Assembly (NCBI GenBank): GCA_944386655.1
Contig: CALXBX010000004.1
Span: 2,595 to 66,594, forward strand
DNA from: an uncultured Clostridia bacterium
GTDB taxonomy: Bacteria > Bacillota > Clostridia > TANB77 > CAG-508
Direction of reading: 5' to 3'
Length of the DNA: 64,000 nt
The notes below the pieces were generated by a model. It was not told where the DNA came from, searched no databases, and was given only the letters and a program-made list of their open reading frames with translations. Positions 2,763 through 51,433 of this stretch are shown here, one piece after another (the stretch's first letter is position 1; each line of letters starts with the position of its first letter). Made by a program: the position numbers and the translations under genes.

Positions 2763-2780
2763 TTTCTTTCTCTTCTTTGT

Positions 2781-4590: not shown

Positions 4591-4599
4591 ATGCCACCT

Positions 4600-6516: not shown

Positions 6517-6683
6517 AAATCCTCCCCTCGCATAACAAACTCTAACTCATATTATATCACAATAATTTCTCTAATTCAATTATTATTTGTTTTTTCCTCA
6601 CTTTATGTAATTTAATAGTGAAATATATCTTTGGCTATTGTGTTTATTTTATGACATTCTTTGTATTTGAATAATTAACATAA

Positions 6684-6716
6684 TAAAAAAAGGAAGCCTG
6701 ATTGTCTAGGTTTCCT
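6684..6716 (-). terminator. Rho-independent terminator after the RloB gene
   Basis: The minus strand has a GGAAACCT...AGGCTTCC stem (9 bp with one G-U, 8-nt loop) followed by TTTTTTTTATTA, 10 nt after the stop. Confidence 0.7.
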
Positions 6717-6725
6717 CCTTTATTT

Positions 6726-7361: not shown

Positions 7362-8605
7362 AAGTTATCACCCATAGCTATAAAAGGTATTGCACCATAT
7401 CTTCCATTAAGATATCCTTTTTGTATATTTTCTGTTTTTCTAACAGGGAAATCATCTAATGGATATAAATCTGTAGCCCCTTTCTTATAATCTTTTTCTG
7501 TAAACCATATTTGATCTCTTCTAAATAGGTTTAAACTCAATAGATTTGTGTCATGTGTATTAAATATTAATTGTGCACCATTTTTGTTATGCTCTTTGCT
7601 ATTAAATAGCTTTACAATATATTTTACTAAAAACGGATGTAAGCTTCTATCTAGTTCATCTACTATTAGTATTTTTCCTTTTTTTAAAACATGCAGTAAG
7701 ATTGGATTCAAAATAAACATATTTTGTGTACCTAATGATTCTTCTGTTAAATCTAAACTAATATTTCTTTCATTTCCCTTATCGTCTATTATATTGTGAC
7801 TAGTTATCACACTAAAATTTTTTGTACTCCTTGAAATAAATGGTCTTAACTCTGGTGGTATCATAGATAATTGTTCCTCTGAAATTTCTACATTAGAGAT
7901 ATTATATCCATTTATATTCATCTCTGCTTCATTTAAAACATGTAATGAAAAATTTCTTAGTTCTCCACTTTTATCATTATAATATTGTTCCAAAGAAATA
8001 GCTTTTAATGGTTCGTAATCAAATAGTACATTTATTCCATTTGTAATAAAATCATAAACCGGTTTTGTTTTTTCGTAATTCCAAGTAGTAGCTGTAGCTA
8101 GAAAAAATTTGTTCTCCATATTTTTATTTTCTATGTCCCTTAATTTTCTTTCTGTAATAGTATAATGGTACTTATTTACTTCTGTTCTTTCAAAAATTTC
8201 CGTTTCTCTTCCATTTGGATAATAATATAAATATTCTTCATAAATTCTATTTTGATCAGCAGAAAAGCCATATGCATATTTTATATTATCTATTACCATA
8301 ATAAATTCAAATGAAGTTGGCTTATTTATATTTTTTTCATTAAACTTAAAAGGACTTATTGGTAATTTCATTCCAGGTTGCATATTGTTTGAATTTCTCA
8401 TCATAATAATTACGGCATTTATGGCTTTCAATAAATTTGTTTTTCCTGAGGCGTTAGCTCCATATATTACTGCTGATTTTAAATATTTTTCATTTTTACA
8501 TTCTACTAAGTTTTCTGGTATTTCTTTATCAGCAGAAGCCAGCATGCTGAAAACTACTTTTTCATTTATGGACATAAAATTTTCAACACTAAATTGTACT
8601 AACAT
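7346..8605 (-). CDS. AAA_15/AAA_21-type (ABC-like) ATPase, first gene of the ATPase+RloB (AbiL-like) defence pair
   Basis: Walker A GANASGKTN, Walker B LIVDELDRSLHP and the QLIFNTHDTNLL motif are present. AAGGAGG RBS before the ATG. Confidence 0.75.
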   Translation of the reverse strand: MLVQFSVENFMSINEKVVFSMLASADKEIPENLVECKNEKYLKSAVIYGANASGKTNLLKAINAVIIMMRNSNNMQPGMKLPISPFKFNEKNINKPTSFEFIMVIDNIKYAYGFSADQNRIYEEYLYYYPNGRETEIFERTEVNKYHYTITERKLRDIENKNMENKFFLATATTWNYEKTKPVYDFITNGINVLFDYEPLKAISLEQYYNDKSGELRNFSLHVLNEAEMNINGYNISNVEISEEQLSMIPPELRPFISRSTKNFSVITSHNIIDDKGNERNISLDLTEESLGTQNMFILNPILLHVLKKGKILIVDELDRSLHPFLVKYIVKLFNSKEHNKNGAQLIFNTHDTNLLSLNLFRRDQIWFTEKDYKKGATDLYPLDDFPVRKTENIQKGYLNGRYGAIPFIAMGDNLWPEE

Positions 8606-19508: not shown

Positions 19509-21311
19509 TTATTCTGCAAAAATTTCTTCGAATTCGTCTCCGTCTATCTTTTCTTTCTCTAGCAAGATACCTGCTACTTTATGCAATTTATCTACATTTG
19601 CTCTTAAAATTTCTGTTGCCATGTGGTAAGCATTATCAATAATTCTTTTTACTTCTTCATCAATAATGCCGGCAGTTTCTTCGGAGTATTCTTTTGCTTG
19701 TGCAAAATCTCTTCCTAGAAATACTTCTTCTTGTCCAGATCCTAACATGATAGTTCCAATTCTATCGCTCATTCCATATTTAGTTACCATATTTCTAGCA
19801 ATTTTGGTTGCTCTTTCTATATCGTTACTTGCTCCGGTAGAAATATCGTCTAAGATTAATTTTTCTGCTGCTCTTCCACCTAGTAAAGATACAATAGTTT
19901 CTTCCATTTCTGATTTTGACATAAAGTTTTTATCTTCTGTTGGACGGTACATTGTATACCCTCCAGCCATTCCTCTAGGTACAATTGAGATTTGATGTAC
20001 TGGATCTTGTGTTGGTAAAAATCTACTAACTACGGCATGGCCAGCTTCATGATAAGCTACTAATTTATTTTCTTTTTCGCTTCTTACTCTTGTTCTCTTT
20101 TCTGGTCCCATGGTTACTTTTACCATAGCATCTTCTATTTCCCTCATTCCTATTTCTGGTAAGTTTCTTCTAGCAGAAAGTAGTGCTGCTTCGTTTAAAA
20201 CATTCTCTAGGTCTGCTCCTGAAAATCCTGAAGTATTTTTTGCAATAATTCTTAAATCTACATCATCTGCCAATCTTTTCTTTCTAGCATGTACTTCTAA
20301 TATTTGTTCTCTTGCTTTTACATCTGGTGAACTTACTACAATTTGTCTGTCAAATCTTCCTGGTCTTAATAAAGCTTTATCTAAGATATCTGGTCTATTG
20401 GTTGCTGCTAGTACAATAACCCCCTCATTTTCTGCAAATCCATCCATTTCTACTAGCAATTGATTTAAGGTTTGTTCTCTTTCATCATGTCCACCACCAA
20501 GACCTGCACCTCTTTGACGTCCTACTGCATCAATTTCGTCGATAAATATAATGCATGGTGCTTTTTTCTTCGCTTCTTCAAACAAATCTCTTACTCTAGA
20601 TGCTCCAACACCAACAAACATTTCTACGAAGTCGGAACCACTAATAATAAAGAATGGTACTCCTGCCTCACCAGCTACAGCTCTTGCAAGAAGTGTTTTA
20701 CCAGTTCCTGGTTGTCCTACTAATAAAACTCCTTTTGGAATTCTTGCTCCCATATCTGTAAATTTCTTTGGATTTTTTAAAAATTCTACAATTTCTTCTA
20801 ATTCTTCTTTTTCTTCATCTACACCTGCTACATCTTTAAAAGTTACTTTTGCTTTATCTTGTGGAGAAACCATTCTTGCTTTGCTTTTTCCAAATGTCAT
20901 GGTTTTGCTTCCCCCATTTTGGCTTCCATTCATCATAAAGAACCAGAAAATTAGGAAGATAATTAAAATTCCAAATGGAGTAAGTAAACTTAGAATTACC
21001 ATAAAGAAAGATTCTGACCTTTCAGAAACTTCTATGGTTCCTGCTTTCATAGAGTCATTTACAGTTTCCATTAAATTATCTATACTAGGAATATTTACTT
21101 CTTTTGGTACTCTATCATTTTTCATAGTAACTTCTGCAGTTGTTCCACTAGAGTCTATTACAATTTCTTCTACTTCTCCTGCATCAATACTTGCTACTAA
21201 TTCTGAATACGCTAATTTATTACTAGAATTATCTAAAATAGAACTGACTAATACGATAAAAATAATAAATATAATCAGCCACATGGCTAGTGTTTTAATT
21301 CCGTTTTTCAA
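19509..21311 (-). CDS. ftsH: ATP-dependent zinc metalloprotease FtsH
   Basis: Two TM segments, AAA Walker A GQPGTGKT, the SRH region and the HEAGHA zinc motif. Confidence 0.95.
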
Positions 21312-21471
21312 GTTTTTTCCTCCTTACTTTTTGATAAAAAATTTCTCTTTTATCACATTATAGAAATATACCATAGAACTTGTATAATTGCAAGGGTATT
21401 TTATAAAGTTTTTTCATGCAAAATCCCTCTGTATCAAGCTTTTTACTACGGAAATACGCTTTAAAAGCAGA

Positions 21472-22500
21472 CTACTGCTCTAGGAAAAAAATTTTTCCTT
21501 TGTTTACCAATACTTTTACTTTTTTATTAGGAATTAAATATTTATTTCCTACATTTTTTTCACAAAGTTTGATAATATCTTCTATATGTATTTTTTCGAT
21601 ATCTTTTGTTGTTCCTAATAACCTATTAATAGTATATCGTATTACTCTGGATTTTATGACAAAATCTTGTTCTTTCCATTTTTTTAAGGATAATAGTATA
21701 CTGTTCTCCTGATTCGTTTCTCCTTCTAAATTTTCTTCTAATACCATAAAATCATATGCTTTTTTGGTTTGTTTTTCTAAATAGTGATTTTCTTGCCTTG
21801 CTAATTCTGACAAACGATTTAGTGTAGCTACTATATTGGGATTCCATTCTTTTTCTAGAAATGGTATTAATGTATTTCTTACTTTATTTCTGTTATATAC
21901 ATTTTCTTGATTGGATGTATCTATTTTAGGTTGCAAATTTTTTTCTTCGCAATACTGATAAATCTCTTCTTTGGTGCAATGGATAAGTGGTCTAATAAAT
22001 ACTACCTTTTTTTCGTTTTTGCGAATTGGTTCTATTCCTTTTAAACCTGCTGTACCACTACCTCTTATAATATTCATAAGCACGGTTTCTGCATTGTCGT
22101 TTGCTTGATGTGCCGTTACAATTTTTTGTGCATTTTGCTCTTGCCTCACTTCTTCAAAAAATTGATAACGTAGAAGTCTTCCCATTTCTTCTGTTCCTTT
22201 TTTCTCTTTTTGGGCTAATTCTTTTACATTTACTCTTTTTACAAAACAAGGAATTTGATGCATCTTGCAAAATTCTTCCACATAGACTGTTTCTTCCTCT
22301 GCTTCTTTACGTAGCATATGATTGACATGTGCCACTAATAGAGTACAAGAAGGAATTTGATTTTTCTCTTGTAAGGTAAGTAAGATATGCAATAAAGCCA
22401 TAGAATCTGGTCCTCCAGAAACTCCTATGACTAATTTATCCTCTTTTTTTATTAATTGATATTTTTTTATGGTTTCCAACACCTTATTTTCTAACGTCAT
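21472..22500 (-). CDS. tilS: tRNA(Ile)-lysidine synthase TilS (short form)
   Basis: The PP-loop SGGPDS (VIGVSGGPDSMALL) and its position upstream of ftsH, as in many Bacillota. No hpt lies between them here. Confidence 0.85.
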   Translation of the reverse strand: MTLENKVLETIKKYQLIKKEDKLVIGVSGGPDSMALLHILLTLQEKNQIPSCTLLVAHVNHMLRKEAEEETVYVEEFCKMHQIPCFVKRVNVKELAQKEKKGTEEMGRLLRYQFFEEVRQEQNAQKIVTAHQANDNAETVLMNIIRGSGTAGLKGIEPIRKNEKKVVFIRPLIHCTKEEIYQYCEEKNLQPKIDTSNQENVYNRNKVRNTLIPFLEKEWNPNIVATLNRLSELARQENHYLEKQTKKAYDFMVLEENLEGETNQENSILLSLKKWKEQDFVIKSRVIRYTINRLLGTTKDIEKIHIEDIIKLCEKNVGNKYLIPNKKVKVLVNKGKIFFLEQ

Positions 22501-26579: not shown

Positions 26580-26915
26580 CTAACGTTTTGTTACGTATTT
26601 TTGATTTTTATGATTTGGTTTTTCTGGTATGGTCATTTGTAATTTTCCACTATCTAATAAAGGTCTCATATATTTTAAATAGAAATTTCTTCTATCCTTT
26701 AATTCTAAATATTCCATTATTTCTTTTGTTGTTCTTGGTTCTTTACAAAATTCTAATATTTTATCTTGGTGGGTATCTTGGTGGGTATCTTGGTGGGTTC
26801 TTGGTCGGTCTTTTGTTTCGTTTTCAAATCCATCATGTATAAATATTGTTGTAATAAAATAATCTCTGCATCCTTCTCCTACATTTATTTCTATTATGAA
26901 ATTATACCACTCCAC
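26580..26915 (-). pseudogene. Probable C-terminal remnant of an AlbA_2/ATPase-type putative DNA-binding protein (winged-helix tail)
   Basis: The tail KILEFCKEPRTTKEIMEYLELKDRRNFYLKYMRPLLDSGKLQMTIPEKPNHKNQKYVT resembles the conserved C-terminal wHTH of longer regulator/ATPase proteins. No N-terminal domain is present. The ORF is squeezed between mtaD and gdpP. Confidence 0.4.
26763..26810. repeat. 12-nt tandem repeat (ATCTTGGTGGGT x3 plus one degenerate copy) encoding (THQD)n
   Basis: Three perfect copies lie at 26763-26798 and one degenerate copy at 26799-26810. They translate to THQDTHQDTHQD on the minus strand. Confidence 0.85.
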
Positions 26916-26924
26916 ATATGTGAT

Positions 26925-28211
26925 TTACTGTATTCGTTTCATAATCTCTCCGCATTTTTCTATCACTTCTGCTTCCTCATTTTCAAATTGTAACTGATAA
27001 TTTTCCATTATTATCTTACCATTTACAATGCTTGTTTCTACATTGTTTCCTTTTGCGTTATAAACTAAATCTGCTATAATATCATTTACTGGTTGCATAA
27101 CGATATTATTTAAGTTAACGATAATTATATCGGCAAGTTTGCCCTCTTCTATGCTTCCTATTTTCTGCTCAAGTCCTAATGCTTTTGCTCCATTTATTGT
27201 TCCCATTTTTAGTACTTCGTAAGCAGGCATTTGCACGGCATCTTCCTCTATTCCTTTTTGCAAAAGTGCTGCATATTTCATGCTTTCCCACAAGTCTAAA
27301 TTGCTACCACTTCCCTGTCCATCTGTACCAATACTTACATTAATGCCTTGTTTTACCATCTCTGCAATATTAGCTACACCGCATCCTAATTTTAAATTAC
27401 TTACTGGACAATGAGATATACTAATTTGTTTTAGCTGTGAAAGCCTTGCAATCTCTTCTTTATTTAATTTTACGCAATGAGCTAACAAGACTTTTTCATT
27501 AGAAAATAGCTCTTCTAGGACTTCTATTGGCTTTTTTCCATAACTTTCTTCTATATCTTTTACTTCTTTTGTATTTTCACAAAAATGCATATGCATAGCT
27601 AAAGCATTTTCTTTTGCAAATGCAATGCACTTTTCCACATATGGTTTACTTGCTGTGTATAATCCATGAATTCCCACATTAAAAGTCACTCTACCATCTT
27701 TTCCTTGATAATTTTTTATTAATGTTTTTAATTCCTTTAATCGATTTTCGCCTTCTTCTTCTCCTGATAAATCCATTAGTGTTCTAGTAGTTTGTAATCT
27801 AATGCCTGTGACTTCTGCCGCTTCTATAATCTGCTCTGTCATAAAATACATATCATTAATGGTAGTGGTTCCAGTTCTTATCATTTCTAAAAAAGATAAA
27901 TAAGAAGCATAATAGATATCTTGCTTTGTTAATTTATCTTCCATTGGCCAAATTTTATCTTGCAACCATGATTGTAGTGGCAAACCATCTACGGTTTCTC
28001 TGAAAATGCTCATTGGTATATGAGCATGTGTATTAATTAAGCCTGGCATTACTACCTTATTCGTGGCATCTATTATTTTTTCGTTTTGCTCTGGTTCTAA
28101 GTGTTTTCCTATTTTCTCTATTTTATTCTTTTTAATGCAGATATCCATTCCTCTTTCTATTTTTTCTCTTTTTTCACTCATCGTAATTAAAATAGCATTT
28201 TGAATCAGCAT
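26925..28211 (-). CDS. mtaD: Amidohydrolase, 5-methylthioadenosine/S-adenosylhomocysteine deaminase (MtaD-type)
   Basis: PGLINTHAHIPMSIFR (the HxH metal site) and later HMHFCE, HCV and TDG motifs are typical of MtaD/SsnA-like deaminases. Confidence 0.8.
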   Translation of the reverse strand: MLIQNAILITMSEKREKIERGMDICIKKNKIEKIGKHLEPEQNEKIIDATNKVVMPGLINTHAHIPMSIFRETVDGLPLQSWLQDKIWPMEDKLTKQDIYYASYLSFLEMIRTGTTTINDMYFMTEQIIEAAEVTGIRLQTTRTLMDLSGEEEGENRLKELKTLIKNYQGKDGRVTFNVGIHGLYTASKPYVEKCIAFAKENALAMHMHFCENTKEVKDIEESYGKKPIEVLEELFSNEKVLLAHCVKLNKEEIARLSQLKQISISHCPVSNLKLGCGVANIAEMVKQGINVSIGTDGQGSGSNLDLWESMKYAALLQKGIEEDAVQMPAYEVLKMGTINGAKALGLEQKIGSIEEGKLADIIIVNLNNIVMQPVNDIIADLVYNAKGNNVETSIVNGKIIMENYQLQFENEEAEVIEKCGEIMKRIQ

Positions 28212-28418
28212 CTTTCTTTTCCTCCTTCAAGATCTTGAACATTAGTATTCCCCCATTATTTATTATTCTAGCTAGATAAAATGTTATATATTAAAATTGT
28301 TTTATTTATATATGATTTCCAGAATATTACTAAAATTCATTTTTTTCTCCTTTCCTTTTGATTATAATCTTGCTTTTACGATAACAATATCCTATGCAAG
28401 TGGCCTAATAGCAAATTA

Positions 28419-28451
28419 TTTAAAAGGATAGATTTTTTCATAAATCTATCC
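28419..28451 (-). terminator. Rho-independent terminator at the end of the four-gene island operon
   Basis: Minus strand: GGATAGATTT-atgaaa-AAATCTATCC (10-bp perfect stem) followed by TTTTAAATAATTT. Confidence 0.6.
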
Positions 28452-28598
28452 TTTCACTTATTCTTTGATTGACATTATATAATCACATTTGTTCATAATT
28501 TTATAGATATATCATAAAATAAATAATTTAACATGTGGTGGAGTCGATTGGTTTCACACCAATTTTTGTTGAGAACAACCGTTTTAAATTACATATAA

Positions 28599-29432
28599 CT
28601 ACGACCCCATATAATCTTTTTTAGGAATAATTATTGCTAAAGGATCATCCTGATGTTTGCCTGAATAAATCTGTGCTCTTTCTAACATAGTAGGAGTATA
28701 TATCATTATTGATTCTGGCATATTATTCCTTAAAAAAGCCCCAACAATCGCCTCGCTAGATGCAATAACCTTTGATCGTGTTTCTATTTGTTCCATAGTC
28801 CAACCAAAAAGTTCGTAAAATTTTTTTCCTCTATCAATTATGCGATTTAGAATTATATTTTCTACAGGTAATGGAGTAACAATAATTCCCTCATAGCCTA
28901 CTATATCCATCAATTCTGGGAATTTATCACTTAATAATGAAAAAGATACTCCATTTGGCACATAACTTTTAAATATCTCAATGTTCTTGTTTAGATCTTC
29001 AATCATATAAAGAGTCTTTTCTGGTTGTTCCAAAGCAATATCAAAAAATATTGCCTCTGGATTATTACATTCAAATCCTAATTTCCTTGTCATATTGGTT
29101 ATTTCTAAAAGTCTTTTCAAACCATTTTTAGTAGTATTTCCCACATCATCTACCCTAAATCCTGCAACACCATCTCCTTTTATGTATGATGGGCAAAATA
29201 ATGAGTAAAATTGTATTGGTTGATTTTTTTTTAAGATTTCGCAAATTTTTTTTGTAACAAACTTATTTCTCCAACCAACTATTTCTATTGATTGTAGGTA
29301 TTTAAACCAAGTTAAAATCTTTTCATTAAAGTTAGTTAAGTTAGCTATATTTTTTATATCATCAAAATGTTCTTTAGATAATCTTTCATTTTTTAAAAAA
29401 TCATTTAATTTTTTGTTCAAATTAGCAATCAT
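28599..29432 (-). CDS. Hypothetical protein (orphan); last gene of the island operon
   Basis: 277-aa ORF with no motif I can assign (it contains FYSLFCPSYIKGDGVAGFRVDDVGN). Same strand, and 68 nt downstream of the Qng1-like gene. Confidence 0.6.
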   Translation of the reverse strand: MIANLNKKLNDFLKNERLSKEHFDDIKNIANLTNFNEKILTWFKYLQSIEIVGWRNKFVTKKICEILKKNQPIQFYSLFCPSYIKGDGVAGFRVDDVGNTTKNGLKRLLEITNMTRKLGFECNNPEAIFFDIALEQPEKTLYMIEDLNKNIEIFKSYVPNGVSFSLLSDKFPELMDIVGYEGIIVTPLPVENIILNRIIDRGKKFYELFGWTMEQIETRSKVIASSEAIVGAFLRNNMPESIMIYTPTMLERAQIYSGKHQDDPLAIIIPKKDYMGS

Positions 29433-29500
29433 TATATTTACCTCTTTACTTATTAAAGTATATTAAATTTTCTAGTTATTGTCAACTTTTTTCAAAAAAT

Positions 29501-30436
29501 TTAATAATATATTGTTTTCGTACGATGAGATAAGATTTTACTGTTTGTTGTTTTCCTTATATTCCATATTATATTATCCAATTCAATAGTTGCAATATTT
29601 ATACCCATCGACATCAAAATATCATGCATAATTTCTAGTACATATAGTGTATTTGCTCTTATCTCTACTTCCATTCGACTATTATGCCTTATTATTTTAC
29701 CCTCCTGAATAATTTTTAATAATTTGTCATCATACTTAAAAATTCCTTGGTCATATAGAACTTTAGGAATAGCATAATCAGCACCTCCAGTCAAATTGTT
29801 TATAGACTTAACATTAGTTTTAATTGTTTCTGACATTCTAAATAAATCATTAGTTAACAAAATTGCCCTCTTATTAAAATGAATTATTCTTCCATTAAAT
29901 TCACTTTTATCATCAAAATCATTAAAATTTTTTATAATATAATCCAACAATTCTTCGTCACTTGTTTTTGAAAATAACTCTTCATAAAATTTTCTACCTT
30001 TTTTTGCGATAATATTAATAGTTTTTTTTAAAAGCTTAAATCTTTTTTCTAGTAAATCTGGTACTTCATTATTTGACGTCATTATATTTTTAAATTCATA
30101 ATATTTTAGATTATTTAAATAGTCAATATTTAAAAAGTTATTATTTTTATCTAGTTCTTTTAATATTATATAAAATAAAGCTTCTGAACCAATATATTCT
30201 CTTCCCTTATATAAGACTTTCCAATTTCTATTTTTCCAAAAGCAAAAATTCATACTTTCACATATAAAACTGAATATTATAAATTTTTCTTCTGTTAAAT
30301 TAAAATCTTCTTTGTTAAACCAATAATGATATTCATATCCTTTAATTTCGTTTACAAATACATCTATCTTTGTTGTATCTATAAAAACATACTTACTATT
30401 TTCACTAATAAATTTTATTGTTTCAATATCCTTCAT
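29501..30436 (-). CDS. Qng1/DUF2419 family protein (queuosine 5'-phosphate N-glycosylase/hydrolase-like)
   Basis: Collinear matches to the eukaryotic Qng1 (C9orf64) signature: FISENSKYVFID, MNFCFW, FNKRAILLTND, GADYAIPKVL, EVEIRANTLYVLE and the C-terminal HRTKTIYY. Confidence 0.8.
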   Translation of the reverse strand: MKDIETIKFISENSKYVFIDTTKIDVFVNEIKGYEYHYWFNKEDFNLTEEKFIIFSFICESMNFCFWKNRNWKVLYKGREYIGSEALFYIILKELDKNNNFLNIDYLNNLKYYEFKNIMTSNNEVPDLLEKRFKLLKKTINIIAKKGRKFYEELFSKTSDEELLDYIIKNFNDFDDKSEFNGRIIHFNKRAILLTNDLFRMSETIKTNVKSINNLTGGADYAIPKVLYDQGIFKYDDKLLKIIQEGKIIRHNSRMEVEIRANTLYVLEIMHDILMSMGINIATIELDNIIWNIRKTTNSKILSHRTKTIYY

Positions 30437-30457
30437 TTTATAACCAACCTTAGTAAA

Positions 30458-31090
30458 TTAATCAATAACTTGTGGCATCGGTAAATCAAATGTAACATGG
30501 TTATATTTTTCTATTTTCTGTTCTTTACACAATTCAGAATATTTGTCATCCCATGATAGTCTATATGCTTTTTTTATATCCATGTTTAATTTTTTTACCC
30601 ATTTTCTTACAATTTTTTGTGGTTCCTCAGAGTCACTCTTATTTTCAATTTCAACAGCAATTCCAAATGGATATTCATCCACAGCAATTTCCACTTCATT
30701 ATTTGTAAATATCGTTCTATATCTTTCATAACTTTCAATTGATTTCATTTTCAAAACATTTTCAATTATAAACATTAAATTCTCATATTCGTTATAATTA
30801 ATATTAAGTTCAACTTCTTCTTCTTTATTTATATCTGTTTCTGTTGTAGATGGTAATCTTTTCTTCCAGCTTAGTTTACATTCTGAAATGAAATCATTTT
30901 TTGTAATCCTTACTCTAAATCTCCCATCTACTTTCTTAGTGTAAAAGCTCATTTCTCTACAAGGATGATCAAATTGTAATGTTTTTTCATAGCATCTATT
31001 TTGCATTGATAGACCTTCGACATTTTTTATTTTTTCTATTAATTTTTCTAGCTCTTCTCTAGCAAAATAAAATCTCACCTCATATTCCAT
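30458..31090 (-). CDS. CYTH domain protein (triphosphate tunnel metalloenzyme / class IV adenylyl cyclase-like)
   Basis: N-terminal MEYEVRFYF (an ExExK-type motif with Arg in place of Lys), FRVRITKN, and the C-terminal VDEYPFGIAVEIE resembling the LDxVxGLGxFxEIE strand of CyaB/ThTPase proteins. Confidence 0.65.
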   Translation of the reverse strand: MEYEVRFYFAREELEKLIEKIKNVEGLSMQNRCYEKTLQFDHPCREMSFYTKKVDGRFRVRITKNDFISECKLSWKKRLPSTTETDINKEEEVELNINYNEYENLMFIIENVLKMKSIESYERYRTIFTNNEVEIAVDEYPFGIAVEIENKSDSEEPQKIVRKWVKKLNMDIKKAYRLSWDDKYSELCKEQKIEKYNHVTFDLPMPQVID

Positions 31091-31092
31091 AT

Positions 31093-32634
31093 TTATTTTT
31101 CTCCTTTATCTAACATTAATTCATATATCGCCAACTCCTCTTGAATTGCCACTTCCAAATCTGCAAATCTTAAATTATAGTTAGTAAAATTCTCATCTTC
31201 ATAATTTGAGTTTGAAACTACTTCATTAAATACATTTCTGTCAAGACTTTTATTTAAATCGTTAATGAATTTTTTTATATTTTCTTTTTTTCCAAATACA
31301 TTCATTATTCTACTTTCAATATTAGGTAATTTTTTTATATATATGTTAATCCCAGGTATCTGCCTTTCTGAAATGGTTGTTATCATTTCAACTCTTTTTA
31401 CATAATCATATTCATTGTTTTCAAAAAAGGAACGTAACTTAGACAAACTTATCTCATCCTGAAAAATTTGAGTTTTTTCTTCATTAAAAGTTTTTTGTTC
31501 TACATGCACCTGCCCTTTTAAAAATATACACCCCTTTCCAATTGTATTAAGAACTTTACTGGATCTTATCCTAACTGATTTATTGCTAGTTTTGCTTTCA
31601 AAATAATACATTTTTTCTAAAGAAATCCTATCAAATATATTCTTTCCATACATATTTTGAATAGCTTTAAAAATGCTACTATTTACTCTACACGAAAAAT
31701 TATTTTGTATTTTTATAACTGATTCGTCAACAATATAACGTTTTTCAATTCCACAAATAATCTTATCATAGACATCTAAAAACTTTTTCTTTATTCTGGA
31801 ATCTAATATATAATTTTTATCATTATTAATTTTATCTACAATACTGACAAGTGTAGATAATGTTCTACTATTATACTTTCTGTCAGATATCAACTGGATA
31901 ATTTTATCAATTGTTCCTTCTTCAAACTCATGAGTTTCATTTAATATTTTTATTAAATATTCTGATAAATTATCAGGATTCACATCTTTATCTTTATTTT
32001 CAATATACTTAATTACTTTTAATCCGCTTTCCTTTAGTACTTTTAATTTTCTTTCACTCTCTGAAATTAAAATAAATTTTTCATCTGATAATCCTAACAT
32101 CTCTATTATTTTATAGACAATTCCATAACTTCTAAAATCATTAAAATTATTATTTCCGATTAATATTCTTTGTGCATCATCACGATTTTTTACCCCTATA
32201 AATTTTCCGTCTGTATTGCGTCCTGACACTTGTAATTCAAGTTCTTTTAATTTGTAATGTAACCCCCAACCTTGCGCCTCTTGTGGCAAATGAATAAATA
32301 TACCATTTTTTTGTTCAATTAATTTTATAGAATTAATACGTTGTATTTCACAATCACAGTGAGAATCACCATACATTCCTAATAAACATTCGCTTTGAAT
32401 CCTTAAAAAAATTTCTTTGTCTTTAAATATTTCTTTTAATTTTGAAACATAATCTATGTCTTTTTCAGCAATCCAATCATTTATTTTATTATCTTTTATT
32501 AATAATAATACATTCTCATTTGTCAATCCATATTCTTTTATTTCATTTTTATCTGCTTTATAACATACTGACAAAACACTTCCATTAAACAACTTATTCT
32601 TTTGTTGTAAATAAAATGAGATTTTATCGTTCAT
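31093..32634 (-). CDS. GTP cyclohydrolase II-like domain (residues ~75-215) fused to a ~300-aa C-terminal region of unknown function
   Basis: LRIQSECLLGMYGDSHCDCEIQ...IFIHLPQEAQGWGLHYKL...FRSYGIVYKIIEMLGL...LISESERKLKVLKESGLKV is collinear with RibA (RVHSECLTGD...RCDCG...QEGRGIGL...R.Y.....L..LG...L.TNNP.K...L...G). The next gene starts 2 nt after the stop. Confidence 0.65.
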   Translation of the reverse strand: MNDKISFYLQQKNKLFNGSVLSVCYKADKNEIKEYGLTNENVLLLIKDNKINDWIAEKDIDYVSKLKEIFKDKEIFLRIQSECLLGMYGDSHCDCEIQRINSIKLIEQKNGIFIHLPQEAQGWGLHYKLKELELQVSGRNTDGKFIGVKNRDDAQRILIGNNNFNDFRSYGIVYKIIEMLGLSDEKFILISESERKLKVLKESGLKVIKYIENKDKDVNPDNLSEYLIKILNETHEFEEGTIDKIIQLISDRKYNSRTLSTLVSIVDKINNDKNYILDSRIKKKFLDVYDKIICGIEKRYIVDESVIKIQNNFSCRVNSSIFKAIQNMYGKNIFDRISLEKMYYFESKTSNKSVRIRSSKVLNTIGKGCIFLKGQVHVEQKTFNEEKTQIFQDEISLSKLRSFFENNEYDYVKRVEMITTISERQIPGINIYIKKLPNIESRIMNVFGKKENIKKFINDLNKSLDRNVFNEVVSNSNYEDENFTNYNLRFADLEVAIQEELAIYELMLDKGEK

Positions 32635-32883
32635 ATTAAATACTCCTATTTTTTTGTATATTATACTATTAATTCCATTGATTGTAAACAGCTACTGACA
32701 AATTATACTAGAAAGTTAATTAAATTATATAAAATAAGAACAAGTAAGAATTTAAGTTTTATTGAACAAATAATTTATTTCTTGATTTAATATATAATAT
32801 TACTAATTATACATTATTTGGTCTATTAAACATATTTAATTATCATTTACTTTAGATATTTTAAAAAAATGGCTAAAATAACT

Positions 32884-32913
32884 AAGGCAGAAAACTTAGG
32901 AAGTTTTCTGCCT
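32884..32913 (-). terminator. Rho-independent terminator after rpoC
   Basis: Minus strand: AGGCAGAAAACTT-cct-AAGTTTTCTGCCT (13-bp perfect stem) followed by TAGTTATTTTAG, 25 nt after the rpoC stop. Confidence 0.7.
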
Positions 32914-32937
32914 AGATTATATTGACAATCAGCCTTT

Positions 32938-35900
32938 TTATTCTTGTGTAGTTACCGGTTCTTCTTTTTGTTCTTGGTCCTGTGCTTCTTTTTCTTCTGC
33001 TGGTTCTTCGTCTGTACTAATTCTTGTGTTTTTAAATTTATTTAGTCCTGTTCCTGCTGGAATTAGTTTTCCGATGATAACGTTTTCTTTTAGTCCTACT
33101 AATTCGTCTACTTTTCCTTTAATAGCTGCTTCTGTTAATACTCTTGTTGTTTCTTGGAAGGATGCTGCTGATAAGAAGCTATCTGTTGCAAGAGATGCTT
33201 TGGTAATTCCTAGCAATACTCGTTTTCCTGTTGCTGGACGTTTTCCTTCTTCTATTGCTTTTTCGTTTACGTCTTGGAACTCGTACATATCTACTAGAGA
33301 TCCAGCAAATAGGTTTGTATCTCCATTATCTTCTACTCTTACTTTCTTAAGCATTTGTCTTCCAATAACTTCTATATGTTTATCGTTAATATCTACACCT
33401 TGGTTTCTATATACTTTTTGTACTTCTTGTACTAAGTAGTTATATACTCCTTCTGGTCCTTTGATAACAAGTAATTCGTTTGGATTGATAGATCCTTCTG
33501 TTAATGGCTGTCCTGCAACGACCTCGTCTCCATCTCTTACTTTTAGTTTAGATCCAAATGGTATCACATAGGTTCTACTATCGTCTTTTGCAGTAACAAT
33601 TACTTCTTTTCTCTTCTTTTCATCTGAGATTTTAACAGTTCCATCGATTTCTGAGATAATAGCAAGTCCCTTTGGTTTTCTAGCTTCGAATAATTCCTCG
33701 ACTCTAGGAAGACCTTGTGTAATATCTGCTACACCAGCAACACCACCAGAGTGAATGGTTCTCATAGTAAGCTGTGTACCTGGCTCACCAATAGATTGTG
33801 CTGCAATTATTCCAACTGCTTCTCCTATGCTGACTTCGTCACGTGCTGCAAGTCCCATACCATAACATTTTGCACATACTCCGTTTTTGGTTCTACATCC
33901 AAATACGCTACGTACTCTTACTTTTTCAATACCGGCTTCTACAATCTTATCTGCTGTTTTATCATTAATCATGGTATTGGTATCTACAATAATTTCTCCT
34001 GTTTCTGGATGTTTAATATCTTCTAATGGATATCTGCCAATTAGTCTTTCTTGCAAGCTCTCAATTACTTGATTTCCGTCTTTGATGGCTTCTAATTCAA
34101 TACCATCATGTGTTCCACAATCATGTTCTCTTACAATAATATCTTGTGATACGTCTACTAATCTTCTTGTTAAATATCCAGAGTCTGCTGTTCTTAGCGC
34201 TGTATCGGATAATCCTTTACGTGCTCCGTGTGCTGAAATGAAGTACTCTAGGGCATCTAGTCCTTCACGGAAAGAAGAACGAATTGGTATTTCTACTGTT
34301 TTACCAGTGGTACTTGCCATAAGTCCTCTCATACCTGCAATTTGTTTTAATTGGTCTAAGTTACCACGTGCTCCAGAATCAGACATCATAAATACTGGAT
34401 TTAATTTTGAGAAGTTTGCTTTCATAGCATCTTTTACTTCGTCTGTTGCTTTTTCCCAAATTTTAATAACAGAATTGTATCTTTCTTCTTCTGTAATTAA
34501 ACCACGTCTATATTGTTTTGATACATTATCTACTTCTACTTGTGCTTTTTCCAAAATGGTTTTCTTTTCTTCTGGCACTTTTACATCATCAATGGATACG
34601 GTAATACCAGCAAGTGTAGAGTATTTATATCCGGTTGCTTTAATGTAGTCTAATAATTCTGCTGAACGGCTAAGTCCATGTTTATTAATACTCTTTTCTA
34701 CAATTTTTCCTAATTGTTTTTTATTGACTACAAAATTGATTTCTGGTTCGAATTCGTTTTCTTCTTTGCTTCTATCTACAAAGCCTAAATCTTGAGGAAT
34801 TCCTTTATTGTAGATAATTCTTCCTACAGTTGTTTCTACTTTTTTATGCTTTTCTACTCCATTTTCTACTTTGCTCATTCTTACGAAAACTTTTGCATGC
34901 ATACCTACATCCTTGTTTTCATAGCTAATGATGGCTTCTTCTGGAGAGGAGAAATAAGTACCTTCTCCTTTTTCTCCCTCTACTTCCATGGTTAAGTAGT
35001 AACTTCCTAAAATCATATCCTGTGTAGGAACAGTTACTGGTTTACCATCTTGAGGTTTTAATAGGTTGTTTACAGATAACATTAAATATCTTGCTTCTGC
35101 TTGTGCCTCTGGTGATAGTGGTACGTGAATTGCCATTTGGTCACCATCGAAGTCGGCATTGAATGCTGTACATACTAATGGATGTAGTTTAATAGCTCTT
35201 CCTTCTACTAACACTGGTTCAAAGGCTTGTATTCCTAGTCTATGTAGTGTTGGCGCACGGTTTAGCATAACAGGATGGTCTTTGATAACATCTTCTAAGA
35301 TATCCCATACTTCTGGGCGTAATCTTTCTACCATTCTTTTTGCATTTTTAATATTATGTGCAATTCCTCTAGAAACTAGTTCCTTCATAACAAATGGTTT
35401 GAACAACTCTACTGCCATCTCTTTTGGCACACCACATTGATACAATTTAAGTTCTGGTCCTACTACAATAACAGAACGTCCTGAATAGTCTACACGTTTT
35501 CCAAGTAGGTTTTGACGGAAACGTCCTTGTTTTCCTTTTAGCATATCGGATAAAGATTTTAAAGGTCTATTTCCTGCTCCTGTTACTGGTCTTCCACGTC
35601 TACCATTATCGATTAAGGCATCTACGGATTCTTGTAACATTCTTTTTTCGTTACGTTTAATGATTTCTGGTGCTCCTAATTCGATTAATCTTTTTAGACG
35701 GTTATTTCTATTGATAACTCTTCTATATAAGTCATTTAAGTCTGATGTAGCAAATCTACCACCATCTAATTGTACCATTGGTCTTAAATCTGGTGGAATA
35801 ACTGGTACTACATTCATAATCATCCATTCTGGACGATTTCCTGATAAACGAAATGCCTCTACGGTATCTAACCTTTTAATTAATTTTGCTTTCTTTTGCT

Positions 35901-40841: not shown

Positions 40842-41216
40842 TTAGTTACTTTTCCTCCACTCTTTTTTCATTTCTATTTCTTCCCTTTCATCATGTTCTT
40901 CTTGTTCCACATCCATCAAATAAATTTTATTATGAAAAGAACCTTTTTTGCTATTTTTTATTTGTCTAGCATTTTCTACCTCTTCCATTGATATTTTTCT
41001 TTTTTTCATTACAGCAAATATAACTTCCATTAAATCAGCTAATTCTTCTACTGAATGTTCCTCTATAAATTCATGTGCCTCTTCCAATATCTTTTTGTCT
41101 AATTCTTGCAAATATTCTTTATCGTTTAATATTTTATAATTACAACTTCTTCCTTCTATCGAATTGATGTTTTCAGGTATTTTATCTCTTACTAATTTAT
41201 TGTAAACATATTTCAT
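40842..41216 (-). CDS. MazG-like / phosphoribosyl-ATP pyrophosphohydrolase-like nucleotide pyrophosphohydrolase
   Basis: MKYVYNKLVRDKIPENI...EEAHEFIEE...EELADLMEVI shows the all-alpha NTP-PPase EExxE/D motifs. Start at ATG 41216 with a GGGGGA RBS. Confidence 0.7.
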   Translation of the reverse strand: MKYVYNKLVRDKIPENINSIEGRSCNYKILNDKEYLQELDKKILEEAHEFIEEHSVEELADLMEVIFAVMKKRKISMEEVENARQIKNSKKGSFHNKIYLMDVEQEEHDEREEIEMKKEWRKSN

Positions 41217-41261
41217 TTTTATCATCCCCCGTTTCATCATGCTTTTATGATAAAACAAATT

Positions 41262-42524
41262 TTAGTCTAATTTGGTTCCGCAGTTACTACAGAATTTTGC
41301 TCCTTCTTCATAGGTTTCTCCGCAGTTTGGGCATTTTCTTTCTTGTGGCTTTGGTTTGCCACAGTTTGGACAAAACATTCCTTGATTATTTTTATTTCCA
41401 CATTCGCAGGTCCAACTAGTTTGTGTTTGGTTTTCTATATTTTTTTCTACCTTTGTTTCTGTGGTTTGTTCTGTATTTGTTTTATTCGTAAATTCCGTTT
41501 GCTCTGTTGTACTTGCCCTATTACTTAGGTCCATTCTACTATTTTCTGTATTTTGCCATGCACTTGCACCCACGTTGGTATTTCCTGTTGCCATATTTAC
41601 CATACCTAATCCCATAAATCCATTCATACTACCACTTGTATTTTGGGCAGCACTTTTGATTGCTTCTGAATAAGCTCCTACCATTCTTCCTTGTTGCATA
41701 TAACTATTAGAACTTAATTCGTAATCATCTATTTTTTGTTTGGACTCTTCATCCAAAGTAACAGATTCTACTGCAAATCCATCTATCTGGATGCCTCTTT
41801 TTCTCATTGGTTCATCAAAGATTTCTTGGTCCATAATTTCTTTGATTTCATCTGTTTGGCTTGGCATTTCTAATACTGGTACTTTATGTTTTTCTGTTCC
41901 TAACTCGTTTACAATATTTTGGAACACTGCCATTACTTCTGTTCTGCATTGCTCTACTAATTTATCTTTTCTATATTCTTCTGCTACTCCTGCTACATTT
42001 TGCATAAATAGAGCAGGATTGATAATACGAAATGTATATTTGCCATAACATTTGATTTGTACTCTTAGTGGTACTATGGTATTTGTCATTTGGTTTGGTA
42101 TTGGATGTGACCAATCTTGAAAAGGGATTGGTGAAGCTGTACCAAATTTATTATCCATTATTTCCTTTATATTAAAGAAAAATACTGCTTGTTCTTTTGC
42201 ACTAGCTCCATCATAGGTAAATCTCTCCCACATTTCTTTAAATGTTTTTCCAAATTGACCTGCAAAGAAGGATGGTGTAGAAGAGCTGTCAAATACATAC
42301 ACTCCTTCTTCTGCTGTTGCATCAAGCACTCTTCCATTATCATAAATAATGGCGCATTGCCCTGGTGCTACAATAATGGTACTTTTATTAGAAATCACGC
42401 CTTGTGGTGTTGTTATTTTTTTCATTAAAATTTCGTTTCCTAAATCTTCGCAACGAATAGCCTCCTTCCATTGGTCATGTAAGGTACTACCTATTGCATT
42501 TTTGGCTGCTTTAATCAATCCCAT
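41262..42524 (-). CDS. SPFH/Band-7_1 (YdjI-like, 'virion core protein-like') protein with C-terminal double zinc ribbons
   Basis: The N-terminus MGLIKAAKNAIGSTLHDQWKEAIRCEDLGNEILMKK... is typical of the YdjI-type SPFH family. The C-terminus carries CECGNKNNQGMFCPNCG...CPNCGETYEEGAKFCSNCG. Confidence 0.65.
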   Translation of the reverse strand: MGLIKAAKNAIGSTLHDQWKEAIRCEDLGNEILMKKITTPQGVISNKSTIIVAPGQCAIIYDNGRVLDATAEEGVYVFDSSSTPSFFAGQFGKTFKEMWERFTYDGASAKEQAVFFFNIKEIMDNKFGTASPIPFQDWSHPIPNQMTNTIVPLRVQIKCYGKYTFRIINPALFMQNVAGVAEEYRKDKLVEQCRTEVMAVFQNIVNELGTEKHKVPVLEMPSQTDEIKEIMDQEIFDEPMRKRGIQIDGFAVESVTLDEESKQKIDDYELSSNSYMQQGRMVGAYSEAIKSAAQNTSGSMNGFMGLGMVNMATGNTNVGASAWQNTENSRMDLSNRASTTEQTEFTNKTNTEQTTETKVEKNIENQTQTSWTCECGNKNNQGMFCPNCGKPKPQERKCPNCGETYEEGAKFCSNCGTKLD

Positions 42525-42552
42525 CTTTTTTTCCTCCTCTTTTTCTTTTATT

Positions 42553-43491
42553 TTAATATCTTTTTAATGGTTCTAAATTGGCAAGAACCCAACCATAATC
42601 GTCTGTGGTAATTACACTTCCGCAATACTCACATTTTCCAGAAGAAGTAATTTTTGTTGGTGCTCCACAGTTTGGACAATTTGTTGTTTTTACCTCTATA
42701 TCTCCTTCTGGAGTAAGTGTTCCTTTTTTCCTTTCGAAGGTTAATTTGTATAAATTGTTTCTATCTTCTGTTTTATTTCCTTCTAATACTTCTTTTGTGG
42801 TAGCATCTATAATATAGTCTTTCATAATAGCTCTTAGGGCAATTTCTAGAATATCTTTTTCTCCATCTTGTCTGAAGGAATATAGATAAGCAAACTGTAC
42901 AGAAATTCTATCTACTACATTAATACGGTTTGTATCTATGTACCCCTTTACTTGTGCAGCATGTTGTTCAAATAGAGCTTTTGTTTCATAAGGTCTCATT
43001 GGCTCCCAATCTCTTGCTGTCCATGCATTTTGCAATTTTACAAATAAATCTTTACTCCAAGCAGTCATTTTTTCTTCGGAGAAATTTGGATCTATTTGCC
43101 TAATTTGTGCAGCCCATTTTTTGGAGTCTTCTGGACTTACTCCATTTTGATAATCTACTGGCCTTCTTGGTATATGTCGTGGCATAGTAGGTCTTCCTTG
43201 TTTTCTCTTTTTTATAGTATAAATAACAATTGCTGCTAATATAATCAGTCCTATCCATGCATTATCTCCTAAGAAAATAAATCCTCCTAAGCTTCCTGAG
43301 GAATAGTCACTATCCCAATCACTATCCCAGCTACTGCTTCCCCAGTCACTAGAACTCCAATCACTACTGGAAGAACTGCCACTATCATATCTATCAAAGC
43401 TTCCTACATCTGCTTTTGAATTCGTAGCAATTCCTAAAATGACTCCTATTAGGATAATAAAATAGATTATCTTCATTCTACTTTTTTTCAT
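42553..43491 (-). CDS. Tim44-like domain protein with signal peptide, S/D/W-rich linker, TM and C-terminal zinc ribbon
   Basis: Signal-like N-terminus, low-complexity SSSSSDWSSSDWGSSSWDSDWDSDY, TM WIGLIILAAIVIYTI, a Tim44-like core (AWTARDWEPMRPYETKALFEQHAAQV) and CPNCGAP...CEYCGS. Confidence 0.6.
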   Translation of the reverse strand: MKKSRMKIIYFIILIGVILGIATNSKADVGSFDRYDSGSSSSSDWSSSDWGSSSWDSDWDSDYSSGSLGGFIFLGDNAWIGLIILAAIVIYTIKKRKQGRPTMPRHIPRRPVDYQNGVSPEDSKKWAAQIRQIDPNFSEEKMTAWSKDLFVKLQNAWTARDWEPMRPYETKALFEQHAAQVKGYIDTNRINVVDRISVQFAYLYSFRQDGEKDILEIALRAIMKDYIIDATTKEVLEGNKTEDRNNLYKLTFERKKGTLTPEGDIEVKTTNCPNCGAPTKITSSGKCEYCGSVITTDDYGWVLANLEPLKRY

Positions 43492-43639: not shown

Positions 43640-43679
43640 TGCAATTTAAGGAACGTCCCTAAGTTGCACCTAAGTTGCA
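43640..43679. repeat. 29-nt quasi-palindromic element (copy a) plus an 11-nt half-repeat
   Basis: TGCAATTTAAGGAACGTCCCTAAGTTGCA followed by CCTAAGTTGCA. It contains the TAG stop (43670-43672) of the giant ORF. Confidence 0.9.
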
Positions 43680-51385: not shown

Positions 51386-51433
51386 GTTTTCCTCCTCCAA
51401 AGACTATCTTGCCATTAAATAATTATATATATT

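Follow-up and report, generated by a model that had tools for sequence, protein, structure and literature searches.

A four-gene operon downstream of rpoC is one variant of an undescribed gene module with a CYTH protein and an unnamed enzyme family at its core

What is the function of four genes that lie downstream of rpoC, in the slot usually taken by rpsL, rpsG and fusA? The question is raised by a stretch of 64,000 nucleotides (nt) from an uncultured Clostridia bacterium (assembly GCA_944386655.1, contig CALXBX010000004.1, positions 2,595 to 66,594), hereafter the window, in which, as the original prediction had stated, rpsL, rpsG and fusA are absent downstream of rpoC. The slot holds an operon that encodes, in the order of its genes, a protein with a GTP cyclohydrolase II (GCH-II)-like domain (P1), a CYTH protein (P2), a Qng1-family protein (P3) and a protein without a family name (P4). 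The original prediction, made from the letters of the sequence, had taken these genes for a candidate undescribed guanine-type nucleotide-processing system. Our analyses reveal that the operon is one variant of a wider, rare and undescribed module whose invariant core is a CYTH protein plus P4, and that this module probably makes or breaks down a GTP-derived compound. The explanation that we prefer, tentatively and at somewhat less than an even chance, is a route that starts from GTP and leads to a metabolite of the ring-opened pyrimidine or the pterin type.

A P4-anchored scan with a single genome for each species gave 28 loci, which all stem from metagenome-assembled genomes (MAGs), and with further look-ups the architectures were compiled from about 40 loci in total. 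The CYTH gene lies just upstream of the P4 gene, in some cases with a Qng1 gene intervening, in every one of the 28 loci that could be judged. In most cases the module starts with a GTP cyclohydrolase (type I, IB, II or II-like), which is adjacent in 23/28 loci, the lead enzymes seen being P1, FolE, a GCHY-1/FolE2-type enzyme and a near-canonical GCH-II; Qng1, adjacent in 7/28, is accessory. The proposed combination of four families thus recurs in many genomes, but not as an obligatory quartet. The hosts are Patescibacteria and small-genome uncultured gut Firmicutes MAGs.

The architectures fall into several types, given here with variable genes in parentheses, fusions marked by double colons and loci cited by our own labels. 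The window operon belongs, with its Qng1 gene, to type A, P1 - P2 - (Qng1) - P4, which was found at 15 of the 28 species-level loci, seven of them with Qng1, and also at L004, L041 and L042/L043. Type B, FolE - CYTH - P4 - (ADK-like kinase), is Patescibacteria-type and was found at 8/28 species-level loci and at L007, and type B', GCHY-1 - CYTH - P4::ADK, at L040. Type C, (Qng1) - GCHY-1 - P4' - P1 - P2, occurs in Fusibacter sp. JL216-2 (CP192292) and gut metagenome contigs, and type D, ADK - P4::LPG_synthase_C - DegT aminotransferase - ADK::GCH-II - PF01931 NTPase, at L038 and L039, where no CYTH gene was called in the cluster and the ITPase-like NTPase (PF01931) is found instead. L037 has GCH-II - NDK::P4. 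Beyond the module, no conserved flanking gene was found across the loci, apart from a SIS-domain (phosphosugar-binding or isomerase) gene at two of them, which lies directly upstream of P1 and overlaps its start (L019, 2875-3783; L024, 395-1345).

No description of this gene combination was found in full-text literature searches or in the family libraries searched, in agreement with the original prediction. All components except P4 belong to known superfamilies, and a cyclohydrolase-initiated nucleotide pathway follows a known general logic. In the libraries and the searchable literature we found no account of the gene combination, the P4 family, the fusion of a GCH-II to a CYTH fold, a Qng1 subfamily with a polar pocket or a kinase subfamily with Glu92.

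P4, previously regarded as an orphan, is instead a conserved, rare and unnamed enzyme family and the signature core component of the module. Source records give these proteins no name or just "hypothetical protein." P4 was not recognised in Pfam (E ≤ 1), NCBIfam, PADLOC or PHROGs, nor in single-sequence and profile searches of PDB sequences, and an exhaustive HMMER search of 1.84 billion representatives yielded no more than 106 clusters (50% identity). An alignment with homologs down to 53% identity contains 62 invariant residues, and the invariant motifs include FCPSYxKG, GFRxDxxGxT, EQ, RGxKFY, SxE and YTPxxLERAxxYSG. In the AlphaFold2 (AF2) model (predicted local distance difference test, pLDDT, 90.1; predicted template modelling score, pTM, 0.89), N-terminal helices are combined with a Rossmann-like domain, and a putative pocket is lined by R93, D95, T100, E135, Q136, R201, K204, Y206, R219, E227, R235, E251 and R252. 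The best Foldseek match was IsnA/PvcA (E 1.6e-5, probability 1.0, template modelling (TM) score 0.50-0.55, root-mean-square deviation (rmsd) 5.4-6 Å), followed by TyrRS and cyclodipeptide synthases, with close scores, and PP-loop enzymes; the profile search of PDB sequences returned no PvcA/IsnA, and there was no PF05141 match. We also considered the sequence DDVGNTT as a phosphoribosyl pyrophosphate (PRPP) motif that would make P4 a phosphoribosyltransferase (PRTase). This assignment was not adopted, as the distant P4' branch lacks the acidic residues and the fold does not resemble that of a PRTase.

In the type D clusters (L038, 6252-11784; L039, 6261-11822), P4 is fused to an aminoacyl-tRNA-dependent transferase domain (LPG_synthase_C), and the cluster of L039 adjoins polysaccharide-synthesis genes. 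The type D partners suggest that in some lineages the product is decorated and possibly aminoacylated. In L002, a tight set of four genes (2163-4953), which lies about 470 nt upstream of the type C module, encodes a CoaE-like kinase, a CTP_transf_like nucleotidyltransferase, an Apyc1-like phosphodiesterase of the metallo-beta-lactamase fold and a PHP phosphoesterase, with a LysR-type regulator gene upstream on the opposite strand; this set may extend the pathway.

P1 is predicted to consist of a divergent GCH-II-like domain, a helical linker and a degenerate CYTH/TTM-fold domain, an architecture that is kept over the full length down to 45% identity. The first of these domains had been foreseen, and residues 71-211 match PF00925 (E 1.5e-14; 54.3 bits against a gathering cut-off of 23.3; profile positions 38-164 of 165); P1 also aligns with solved RibA structures. 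The zinc triad C83, C93 and C95 (E. coli C54, C65 and C67) is invariant in 24 homologs down to 45% identity, and R78, Q118, E119, K128, D166 and R168 are kept as the equivalents of RibA R49, Q91, E92, K101, D126 and R128. D166 and R168 are invariant, Arg128 of RibA being its proposed nucleophile, and the equivalent of RibA K154 is also conserved among the 24 homologs. Other positions are replaced throughout the family: RibA Y105 by L132, R94 by Q121, R90 by P117, H51 by Q and Y88 by H, with a family-wide insertion of about 10-13 residues relative to RibA. RibA Tyr105, Arg94 and Arg90 reportedly have catalytic roles. The P4-linked GCH-II proteins of L037 and L038, unlike the P1 family, retain Y105 and R94.

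These replacements bear on the simplest reading of the locus, that P1 is the RibA of the organism and the operon serves riboflavin biosynthesis. The PF00925 match and the intact zinc site would fit that role, but P1 scores far below the NCBIfam cut-offs for RibA (60.4 bits against 148 for NF001591; 46.3 against 205.85 for TIGR00505). In addition to the family-wide loss of Tyr105, Arg94 and Arg90, the insertion and the fusion to a CYTH-fold domain all speak against a plain ribA, none of ribB, ribD, ribH and ribE is near any locus, and FolE or FolE2 holds the same module position in other lineages. We give this reading almost no credence. Other lead enzymes also score low: a module-linked FolE (L007, 6807-7436) reaches 144.6 against its NCBIfam cut-off of 162, and a FolE2-type enzyme (L002, 6348-7121) 144.5 against 215. 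These proteins may be functionally divergent cyclohydrolases.

The C-terminal part of P1 had been described as an uncharacterised extension of about 300 residues; the AF2 model (pLDDT 82.6) instead points to a helical linker and a degenerate CYTH-fold domain. Foldseek searches with this model retrieved GCH-II (4rl4, 2bz0) and CYTH/TTM structures (1yem, 2een, 7nsa) with probability 1.0, and the CYTH/TTM matches, which include 2aca, have E values of about 1e-6 and target-normalised TM scores of 0.60-0.70. Because the Foldseek output gives no aligned query range, they were placed on residues ~295-465 from the secondary structure of the model, which has long antiparallel strands at 297-448. ExExK and ExE motifs are absent from the conserved columns of this domain, which is thus more likely a degenerate tunnel that serves as a binding module than a catalyst. 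We rejected the idea that it is a duplicate of P2, as hhalign found no significant similarity to the P2 profile (probability 0.2). At several MAG loci, P1 is split into two open reading frames (ORFs) (L009, 2799-4339; L010, 2780-4327; L011, 2791-4388; L026, 3826-5367), which reflects either frameshift errors of assembly or real pseudogenisation of the cyclohydrolase domain with P2 and P4 intact.

P2 is assigned by its residue pattern to the CYTH/TTM triphosphate phosphohydrolases, as had been predicted. Invariant in 16 homologs are E2/E4/R6, R57/R59/R61, K76/R78, E90/E92/E94, D138/E139 and E147/E149; the ExExK motif reads E2-x-E4-x-R6, with Lys replaced by Arg, and ExExK itself is present in the Patescibacterial orthologs. 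Pfam gives no direct match for the window protein, 3/16 family members match CYTH (PF01928; best E 5e-4), and the top PDB profile matches of the family are to AtTTM3. Membership is transitive, because P2 is homologous over its full length (E 1e-20, 26-30% identity) to Patescibacterial proteins with recorded PF01928 matches. Class IV cyclases (CyaB) are marked by an HF motif four residues before ExExK and by Ala for the second Glu of ExE, while hydrolase-type CYTH proteins have an Arg ladder and both Glu of the C-terminal ExE (PMC8233210). P2 starts with M1-E2 and so has no HF motif, both Glu of ExE are kept, E149 included, and the Arg ladder is full; by these marks P2 is predicted to be a two-metal phosphohydrolase and not a class IV cyclase. 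A second, canonical-looking CYTH protein (L013, 2557-3051; 164 aa, starting MEIERKFKV) is encoded about 1 kb downstream of one P2-P4 pair.

The Qng1/DUF2419 assignment of P3 was borne out by the match to PF10343 (E 7e-47; 160.7 bits against a cut-off of 25) and by matches to Qng1 structures in the PDB (7ugk, E 4e-31; 7uk3, E 1e-28), which identify P3 as a clear Qng1 homolog. In 8/8 operon-linked P3 homologs, the residues F75, K199, D231, Y232, E267, D298, W302, H316 and the C-terminal Y323 of StQng1 are conserved; in Qng1, roles are assigned to a nucleophile Asp, a Lys of the helix-hairpin-helix (HhH) motif, ribose-stacking Phe/Tyr and guanine-face Asp/Trp (PMC9881137). The aromatic residues of the StQng1 queuosine (Q) pocket are, however, replaced in all eight: Y93 by S/T, W94 by E and W299 by N. 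This comparison covers Y93, W94 and W299, as W48, P46 and H53 lie outside the StQng1 segment used. These patterns suggest that P3 probably represents a distinct subfamily whose substrate is a guanine-face nucleoside 5'-phosphate other than Q-5'-monophosphate. P3 also has a weak DUF1688 match (E 0.005; 16.1 bits, under the cut-off of 25).

The same residues bear on the standing of a salvage route for queuosine or other 7-deazaguanines, in which P3 would free queuine or a preQ-type base from nucleotides of tRNA turnover with the assistance of the other genes. P3 keeps all catalytic residues of Qng1, and the type B modules include FolE, which catalyses the first step of preQ0 synthesis as well. 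A transporter encoded beside a bacterial qng1 carries preQ0/preQ1, which hints at a broader specificity of the family (PMC11130926). This route, one of the roles offered in the original prediction, is weakened because the Q-specificity pocket is altered in all eight operon-linked proteins; moreover, Qng1 is adjacent at only a quarter of the species-level loci, and genes for tgt, queD, queE, queC or Q-precursor transporters adjoin no variant. We consider it very unlikely.

Nucleoside mono- and diphosphate (NMP/NDP) kinases are frequent in the module, either adjacent or, often, fused to P4 or to the cyclohydrolase: P4 forms three fusions with ADK-like kinases and one with NDK, and further fusions join ADK with GCH-II and with FolE. 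At the position that corresponds to Gln92 in what we take to be the E. coli Adk sequence, each of the 12 ADK-like kinases linked to the module has Glu. The replacement suggests that these kinases act on a non-adenine, guanine-like NMP rather than on AMP.

The kinases also invite a reading in the reverse order, as salvage or house-cleaning. P4 would make a guanine-type NMP, starting from a base or a nucleoside, the Glu92 ADK-like kinases and NDK would raise it to the triphosphate, and the cyclohydrolase and CYTH protein would consume or destroy this; the end would be either to supply pterin synthesis with salvaged guanine in reduced genomes that are auxotrophic for purines or to remove a non-canonical guanine nucleotide, with P3 clearing a modified NMP. 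The fusions P4::ADK, NDK::P4, ADK::GCH-II and ADK::FolE look like consecutive enzymes, and the Glu92 replacement, the Patescibacterial and small-genome Firmicutes hosts and the GxTT helix N-cap after a beta-strand of P4, which is typical of phosphate binding, are all consistent with this order. So are the replaceability of CYTH by an ITPase-like house-cleaning NTPase, the NUDIX and Ham1-like genes near some loci, and the window's tilS-ftsH arrangement without an intervening hprT. On the other hand, the fold of P4, as judged by Foldseek, is not that of a PRTase or of a kinase, no P-loop or PP-loop motif was found in it, the window variant has no kinase gene, and the need for a dedicated cyclohydrolase is left unexplained. 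We regard the reverse order as doubtful and retain it because the kinase fusions fit P4 making an NMP upstream equally well. As to the last of the points in its favour, tilS (PP-loop, 342 aa) is followed directly by ftsH in the window (19509-22500, minus strand) across a gap of about 160 nt. In many Firmicutes hprT sits between these two genes, and its absence there could bear on guanine salvage in the source organism.

The cassette has moved between close relatives. All four genes recur with their order unchanged in two relatives, at P1 identities of 83 and 73%, but the surroundings are unrelated; in one the neighbours are HicB, zeta-toxin, NT5C and SSB, and in the other ArdC-N, FTHFS and a fragment of IS91. 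In Fusibacter, an IS66 element interrupts the locus. Among 2.9 million viral contigs of IMG/VR, two carry the pair, near contig ends and among ORFs that by eye resemble recombinase fragments, in a version without the GCH-II domain; INPHARED phage genomes and PLSDB plasmids gave no match for the pair.

This mobility could fit an anti-phage system or an inter-bacterial effector that dismantles GTP/dGTP in infection by ring opening, triphosphate removal and glycosidic cleavage. The enzymes could jointly destroy a guanine nucleotide, the distribution is patchy, the IS66 insertion is in keeping with such a history, and the moved cassette of the relatives sits beside HicB, zeta-toxin, ArdC-N, the IS91 fragment and, by eye, serine-recombinase-like fragments. 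However, PADLOC-DB 2.0 (E ≤ 1) and PHROGs give no match for any of P1-P4, no sensor or regulatory domain could be recognised in them, the promoter-like site upstream of P1 looks constitutive, and the window flanks are housekeeping genes. The module, nearly absent from phage and plasmid collections, adjoins greA in the Patescibacteria-type loci L007, L038 and L039, together with NTP-building kinases and biosynthetic-type partners (a DegT aminotransferase and an aminoacyl-tRNA-dependent transferase). The anti-phage role, which had also been put forward originally, thus found no positive support, and we consider it improbable.

From the gene structure, family and fold calls, residue patterns, co-occurrence and fusions that were observed, we infer substrates, products and a step order for the preferred route as follows. 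With its intact zinc site, P1 would open the imidazole ring, either in GTP or in a closely related guanine nucleotide. Given that the equivalents of Tyr105, Arg94 and Arg90 are replaced, the product of P1 is probably unlike that of RibA in formyl and/or polyphosphate processing, and the degenerate tunnel domain may grip the polyphosphate tail. P2 would then use a two-metal mechanism to hydrolyse either the triphosphate or the polyphosphate that was released, yielding a ring-opened 2-amino-4-oxopyrimidine ribosylamine 5'-monophosphate. P4 would perform the step that all variants share, on an intermediate that derives from guanine and bears a phosphopentose, and so let modules headed by GCH-I and by GCH-II reach one product, like FolE plus FolQ and RibA plus TrpF. 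The accessory P3 would cut the N-glycosidic bond of a guanine-face nucleoside 5'-monophosphate other than queuosine phosphate, and would either free an aminopyrimidine or clear a reactive intermediate, as COG3236 does for intermediates of riboflavin synthesis.

Several points weigh against this route. P4 is kept in FolE-headed modules, where ring closure is already done, so it cannot simply be the missing Amadori or cyclisation enzyme, and its fusions to kinases fit at least as well with P4 making an NMP upstream of the cyclohydrolase. The likeness of the P4 model to IsnA/PvcA is at the level of the fold only, with a TM score of about 0.5 and no sequence signal. L012 and L036 have a minimal CYTH - P4 arrangement without an adjacent cyclohydrolase, known downstream genes of pterin, flavin and queuosine synthesis adjoin no variant, and the Firmicutes cassette adjoins mobile-element and toxin-antitoxin genes, which is unusual for a housekeeping pathway.

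We nonetheless still place the GTP-initiated route first. In its fullest form, which we hold to be possible rather than probable, the CYTH-P4 pair would define an unrecognised pathway of GTP-derived metabolites common to Patescibacteria and uncultured gut Firmicutes. P4 would carry out chemistry so far assigned to no protein, its substrate being either a ring-opened guanine or a pterin phosphate, the Qng1 paralog would have a new substrate, P1 would be a new type of cyclohydrolase with a tunnel handling polyphosphate, and the product would be a new cofactor, signal or antimetabolite of the pyrimidine or pterin type.

The four genes form a real operon (Table 1). They are co-directional with intergenic gaps of 2, 21 and 68 nt, as originally described, each is preceded by a Shine-Dalgarno-like sequence, and the two hairpins said to bracket the operon were both recovered; terminator-like sites number 5 in the window against 0.4 expected in shuffles. 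Two sigma-70-like promoter candidates, one ending about 26 nt upstream of the P1 ATG and one internal, are only suggestive, because such sites are not enriched in this AT-rich DNA (46 observed against 39.8 expected in shuffles). A riboswitch or leader RNA was rejected: Rfam gave no family for the whole window at the gathering threshold and, at E ≤ 1 on 28150-33000, nothing except a chance match of a miRNA model, and the short distance between the first promoter candidate and the start codon leaves no space for one.

Table 1. Coordinates of the operon, its predicted domains and its candidate signals in the window
Feature	Position	Strand	Size or basis
P1	31093-32634	minus	513 aa
P1 residues 1-240, GCH-II-like catalytic domain (predicted)	31915-32634	minus	conserved residues, PF00925
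P1 residues ~295-513, degenerate triphosphate-tunnel (CYTH-fold) domain (predicted)	31096-31752	minus	AF2 model and Foldseek
P2	30458-31090	minus	210 aa
P3	29501-30436	minus	311 aa
P4	28599-29432	minus	277 aa
rpoC intrinsic terminator, upstream boundary of the cassette	32885-32913	minus	13-bp stem with 5 GC pairs, then T-run
Terminator-like hairpin closing the operon	28423-28454	minus	13-bp stem, then TTTTAAATAATTT on the minus strand (T-rich stretch)
Sigma-70-like promoter candidate of the operon	32660-32688	minus	TTTACA-17-TATAAT, 11/12, consensus match only
Second sigma-70-like promoter candidate, internal, between P3 and P4 (68-nt gap)	29457-29485	minus	TTGACA-17-TATACT, consensus match only

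The operon had also been described as more AT-rich than its surroundings. The difference is real: the GC content of its genes is 0.22-0.28, against 0.306 ± 0.033 for the other genes of the window and 0.35 for rpoB/rpoC. It does not set the operon apart, however, as the GC content at third codon positions (GC3; 0.16-0.20) is that of the window (0.193 ± 0.030), and a block of six genes (1737-8605, minus strand; GC 0.23-0.27), whose products have a very high content of F, Y, N, K and I, matches the AT-richness of the operon. The AT-richness reflects the many F, Y, N, K and I residues of the operon proteins compared with the highly conserved rpoB/rpoC. Because GC3 is normal, it is no sign of foreign origin, and horizontal transfer inferred from composition was rejected.

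The genes past the operon encode, in order, an Amidohydro_1 protein, a Fic-like C-terminal fragment, GdpP, L9, DnaB, TilS and FtsH. The first of these, called mtaD in the original prediction, is indeed an MtaD/TRZ-ATZ-group amidohydrolase, but falls below every curated NCBIfam cut-off. It was rejected as a member of the system, as it lies past the terminator and a 390-nt gap and is missing from all other loci. That gap, about 390 nt of non-coding DNA between the P4 stop and the amidohydrolase start (28212-28598), contains a second hairpin (28538-28557) and a 12-codon ORF and has no Rfam match. Between the amidohydrolase gene and gdpP, a 111-aa ORF (26580-26915, minus strand) matches only the Fic-like C-terminal domain (PF21247, E 1e-14), contains a THQD tandem repeat and looks like a gene remnant. 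At the other end, rplJ/rplL are absent before rpoB, their place being taken (40842-43491, minus strand) by genes for a 138-aa protein without a Pfam match, an SPFH/zinc-ribbon protein and a Tim44-like protein, so that the rpoBC operon is separated from its usual neighbours at both ends. A giant ORF of 2576 aa (43670-51400, minus strand) lies a few genes upstream of rpoB, past the Tim44-like gene.

The routes from GTP to folate, biopterin, riboflavin, queuosine and further metabolites are entered through GTP cyclohydrolases. A module that takes any type of cyclohydrolase with the same two partners suggests either a missing branch of this metabolism or a non-orthologous replacement of known steps, and its hosts are among the organisms whose metabolism is least understood. 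The analysis predicts a Qng1 paralog with a substrate other than queuosine phosphate, an ADK subfamily with Glu in place of the adenine-reading Gln and a GCH-II paralog without Tyr105. It also cautions against the automatic annotation of these genes as ribA, cyaB or queuosine salvage protein.

Among known systems, IsnA/PvcA isonitrile synthases (PDB 9dhm, 9dh4 and 3e59) resemble the model of P4 in combining an N-terminal helical region with a Rossmann-like domain. IsnA-type enzymes are described as condensing an amine with ribulose-5-phosphate (PMC7949033), and the binding of these two substrates would make IsnA/PvcA a plausible chemical analogue for an enzyme acting on a ribosylamine or pentulose phosphate. 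P4 aligns with these enzymes at TM scores of only ~0.5-0.55, an rmsd above 5 Å and 9-12% identity, with no signal at the sequence level, and no isonitrile-tailoring genes, such as those for PvcB-type oxygenases, are near P4.

P3 shares with Qng1/QNG1 (PMC9881137) the nucleophile Asp, HhH Lys, ribose-stacking Phe/Tyr, guanine-face Asp/Trp and C-terminal Tyr. It differs in that the aromatics holding the cyclopentenediol and aminomethyl groups of Q are Ser/Thr, Glu and Asn, and in its context of GTP cyclohydrolase, CYTH and P4 instead of tgt or Q transporters. A looser parallel is offered by the fungal URC genes, in which URC1/urg1 belongs to the GCH-II family, URC6/urg2 is a uracil phosphoribosyltransferase (UPRT) and URC4/urg3 is a DUF1688 protein (PMC2174524, PMC7530994): in that cluster as well, a divergent paralog of GCH-II accompanies a protein that takes the ribosyl remnant off a ring-opened base. 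In contrast, no UPRT gene was found in the window operon or the related loci examined, P3 stays under the DUF1688 cut-off, and the URC set has nothing that corresponds to CYTH or P4; the Asp on the guanine face of P3 favours a 2-amino-4-oxo base, not uracil.

In the proposed vicine pathway of plants, GTP is converted by GCH-II and then by N-glycosidic hydrolysis (COG3236) to a free aminopyrimidine (bioRxiv 10.1101/2020.02.26.966523, citing Frelin et al., 2015). A GCH-II-type enzyme followed by an N-glycosidase that removes ribose-5-phosphate is the logic proposed here for P1 and P3, which is coherent because such a COG3236 (YbiA-type) step has been proposed in vicine formation. The module differs in that P3 is a Qng1 protein (HhH-glycosylase-like) and dispensable in most variants, and in that it has no deaminase or glycosyltransferase.

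The early pterin pathway differs from the module in its enzymes, as FolQ is a Nudix protein and TrpF a TIM barrel, while the module has CYTH and a new Rossmann-like family; folB, folK and folP are not near the module, P4 is kept even with FolE, and an N-glycosidase has no role in pterin synthesis. The likeness lies in the chemistry. In Chlamydia, RibA and the Amadori-rearranging TrpF yield dihydroneopterin monophosphate and bypass FolE and the pyrophosphatase FolQ (PMC4161248). Given that this bypass exists, it is plausible that GCH-I- and GCH-II-type enzymes head one pathway, and the bypass also shows where a phosphohydrolase fits. In both systems, the ring of GTP is, or would be, opened by either type of enzyme, the polyphosphate removed and the branches joined by an Amadori-type convergence; CYTH would fit as a FolQ-like phosphohydrolase, and the interchangeable lead enzymes match those of the module.

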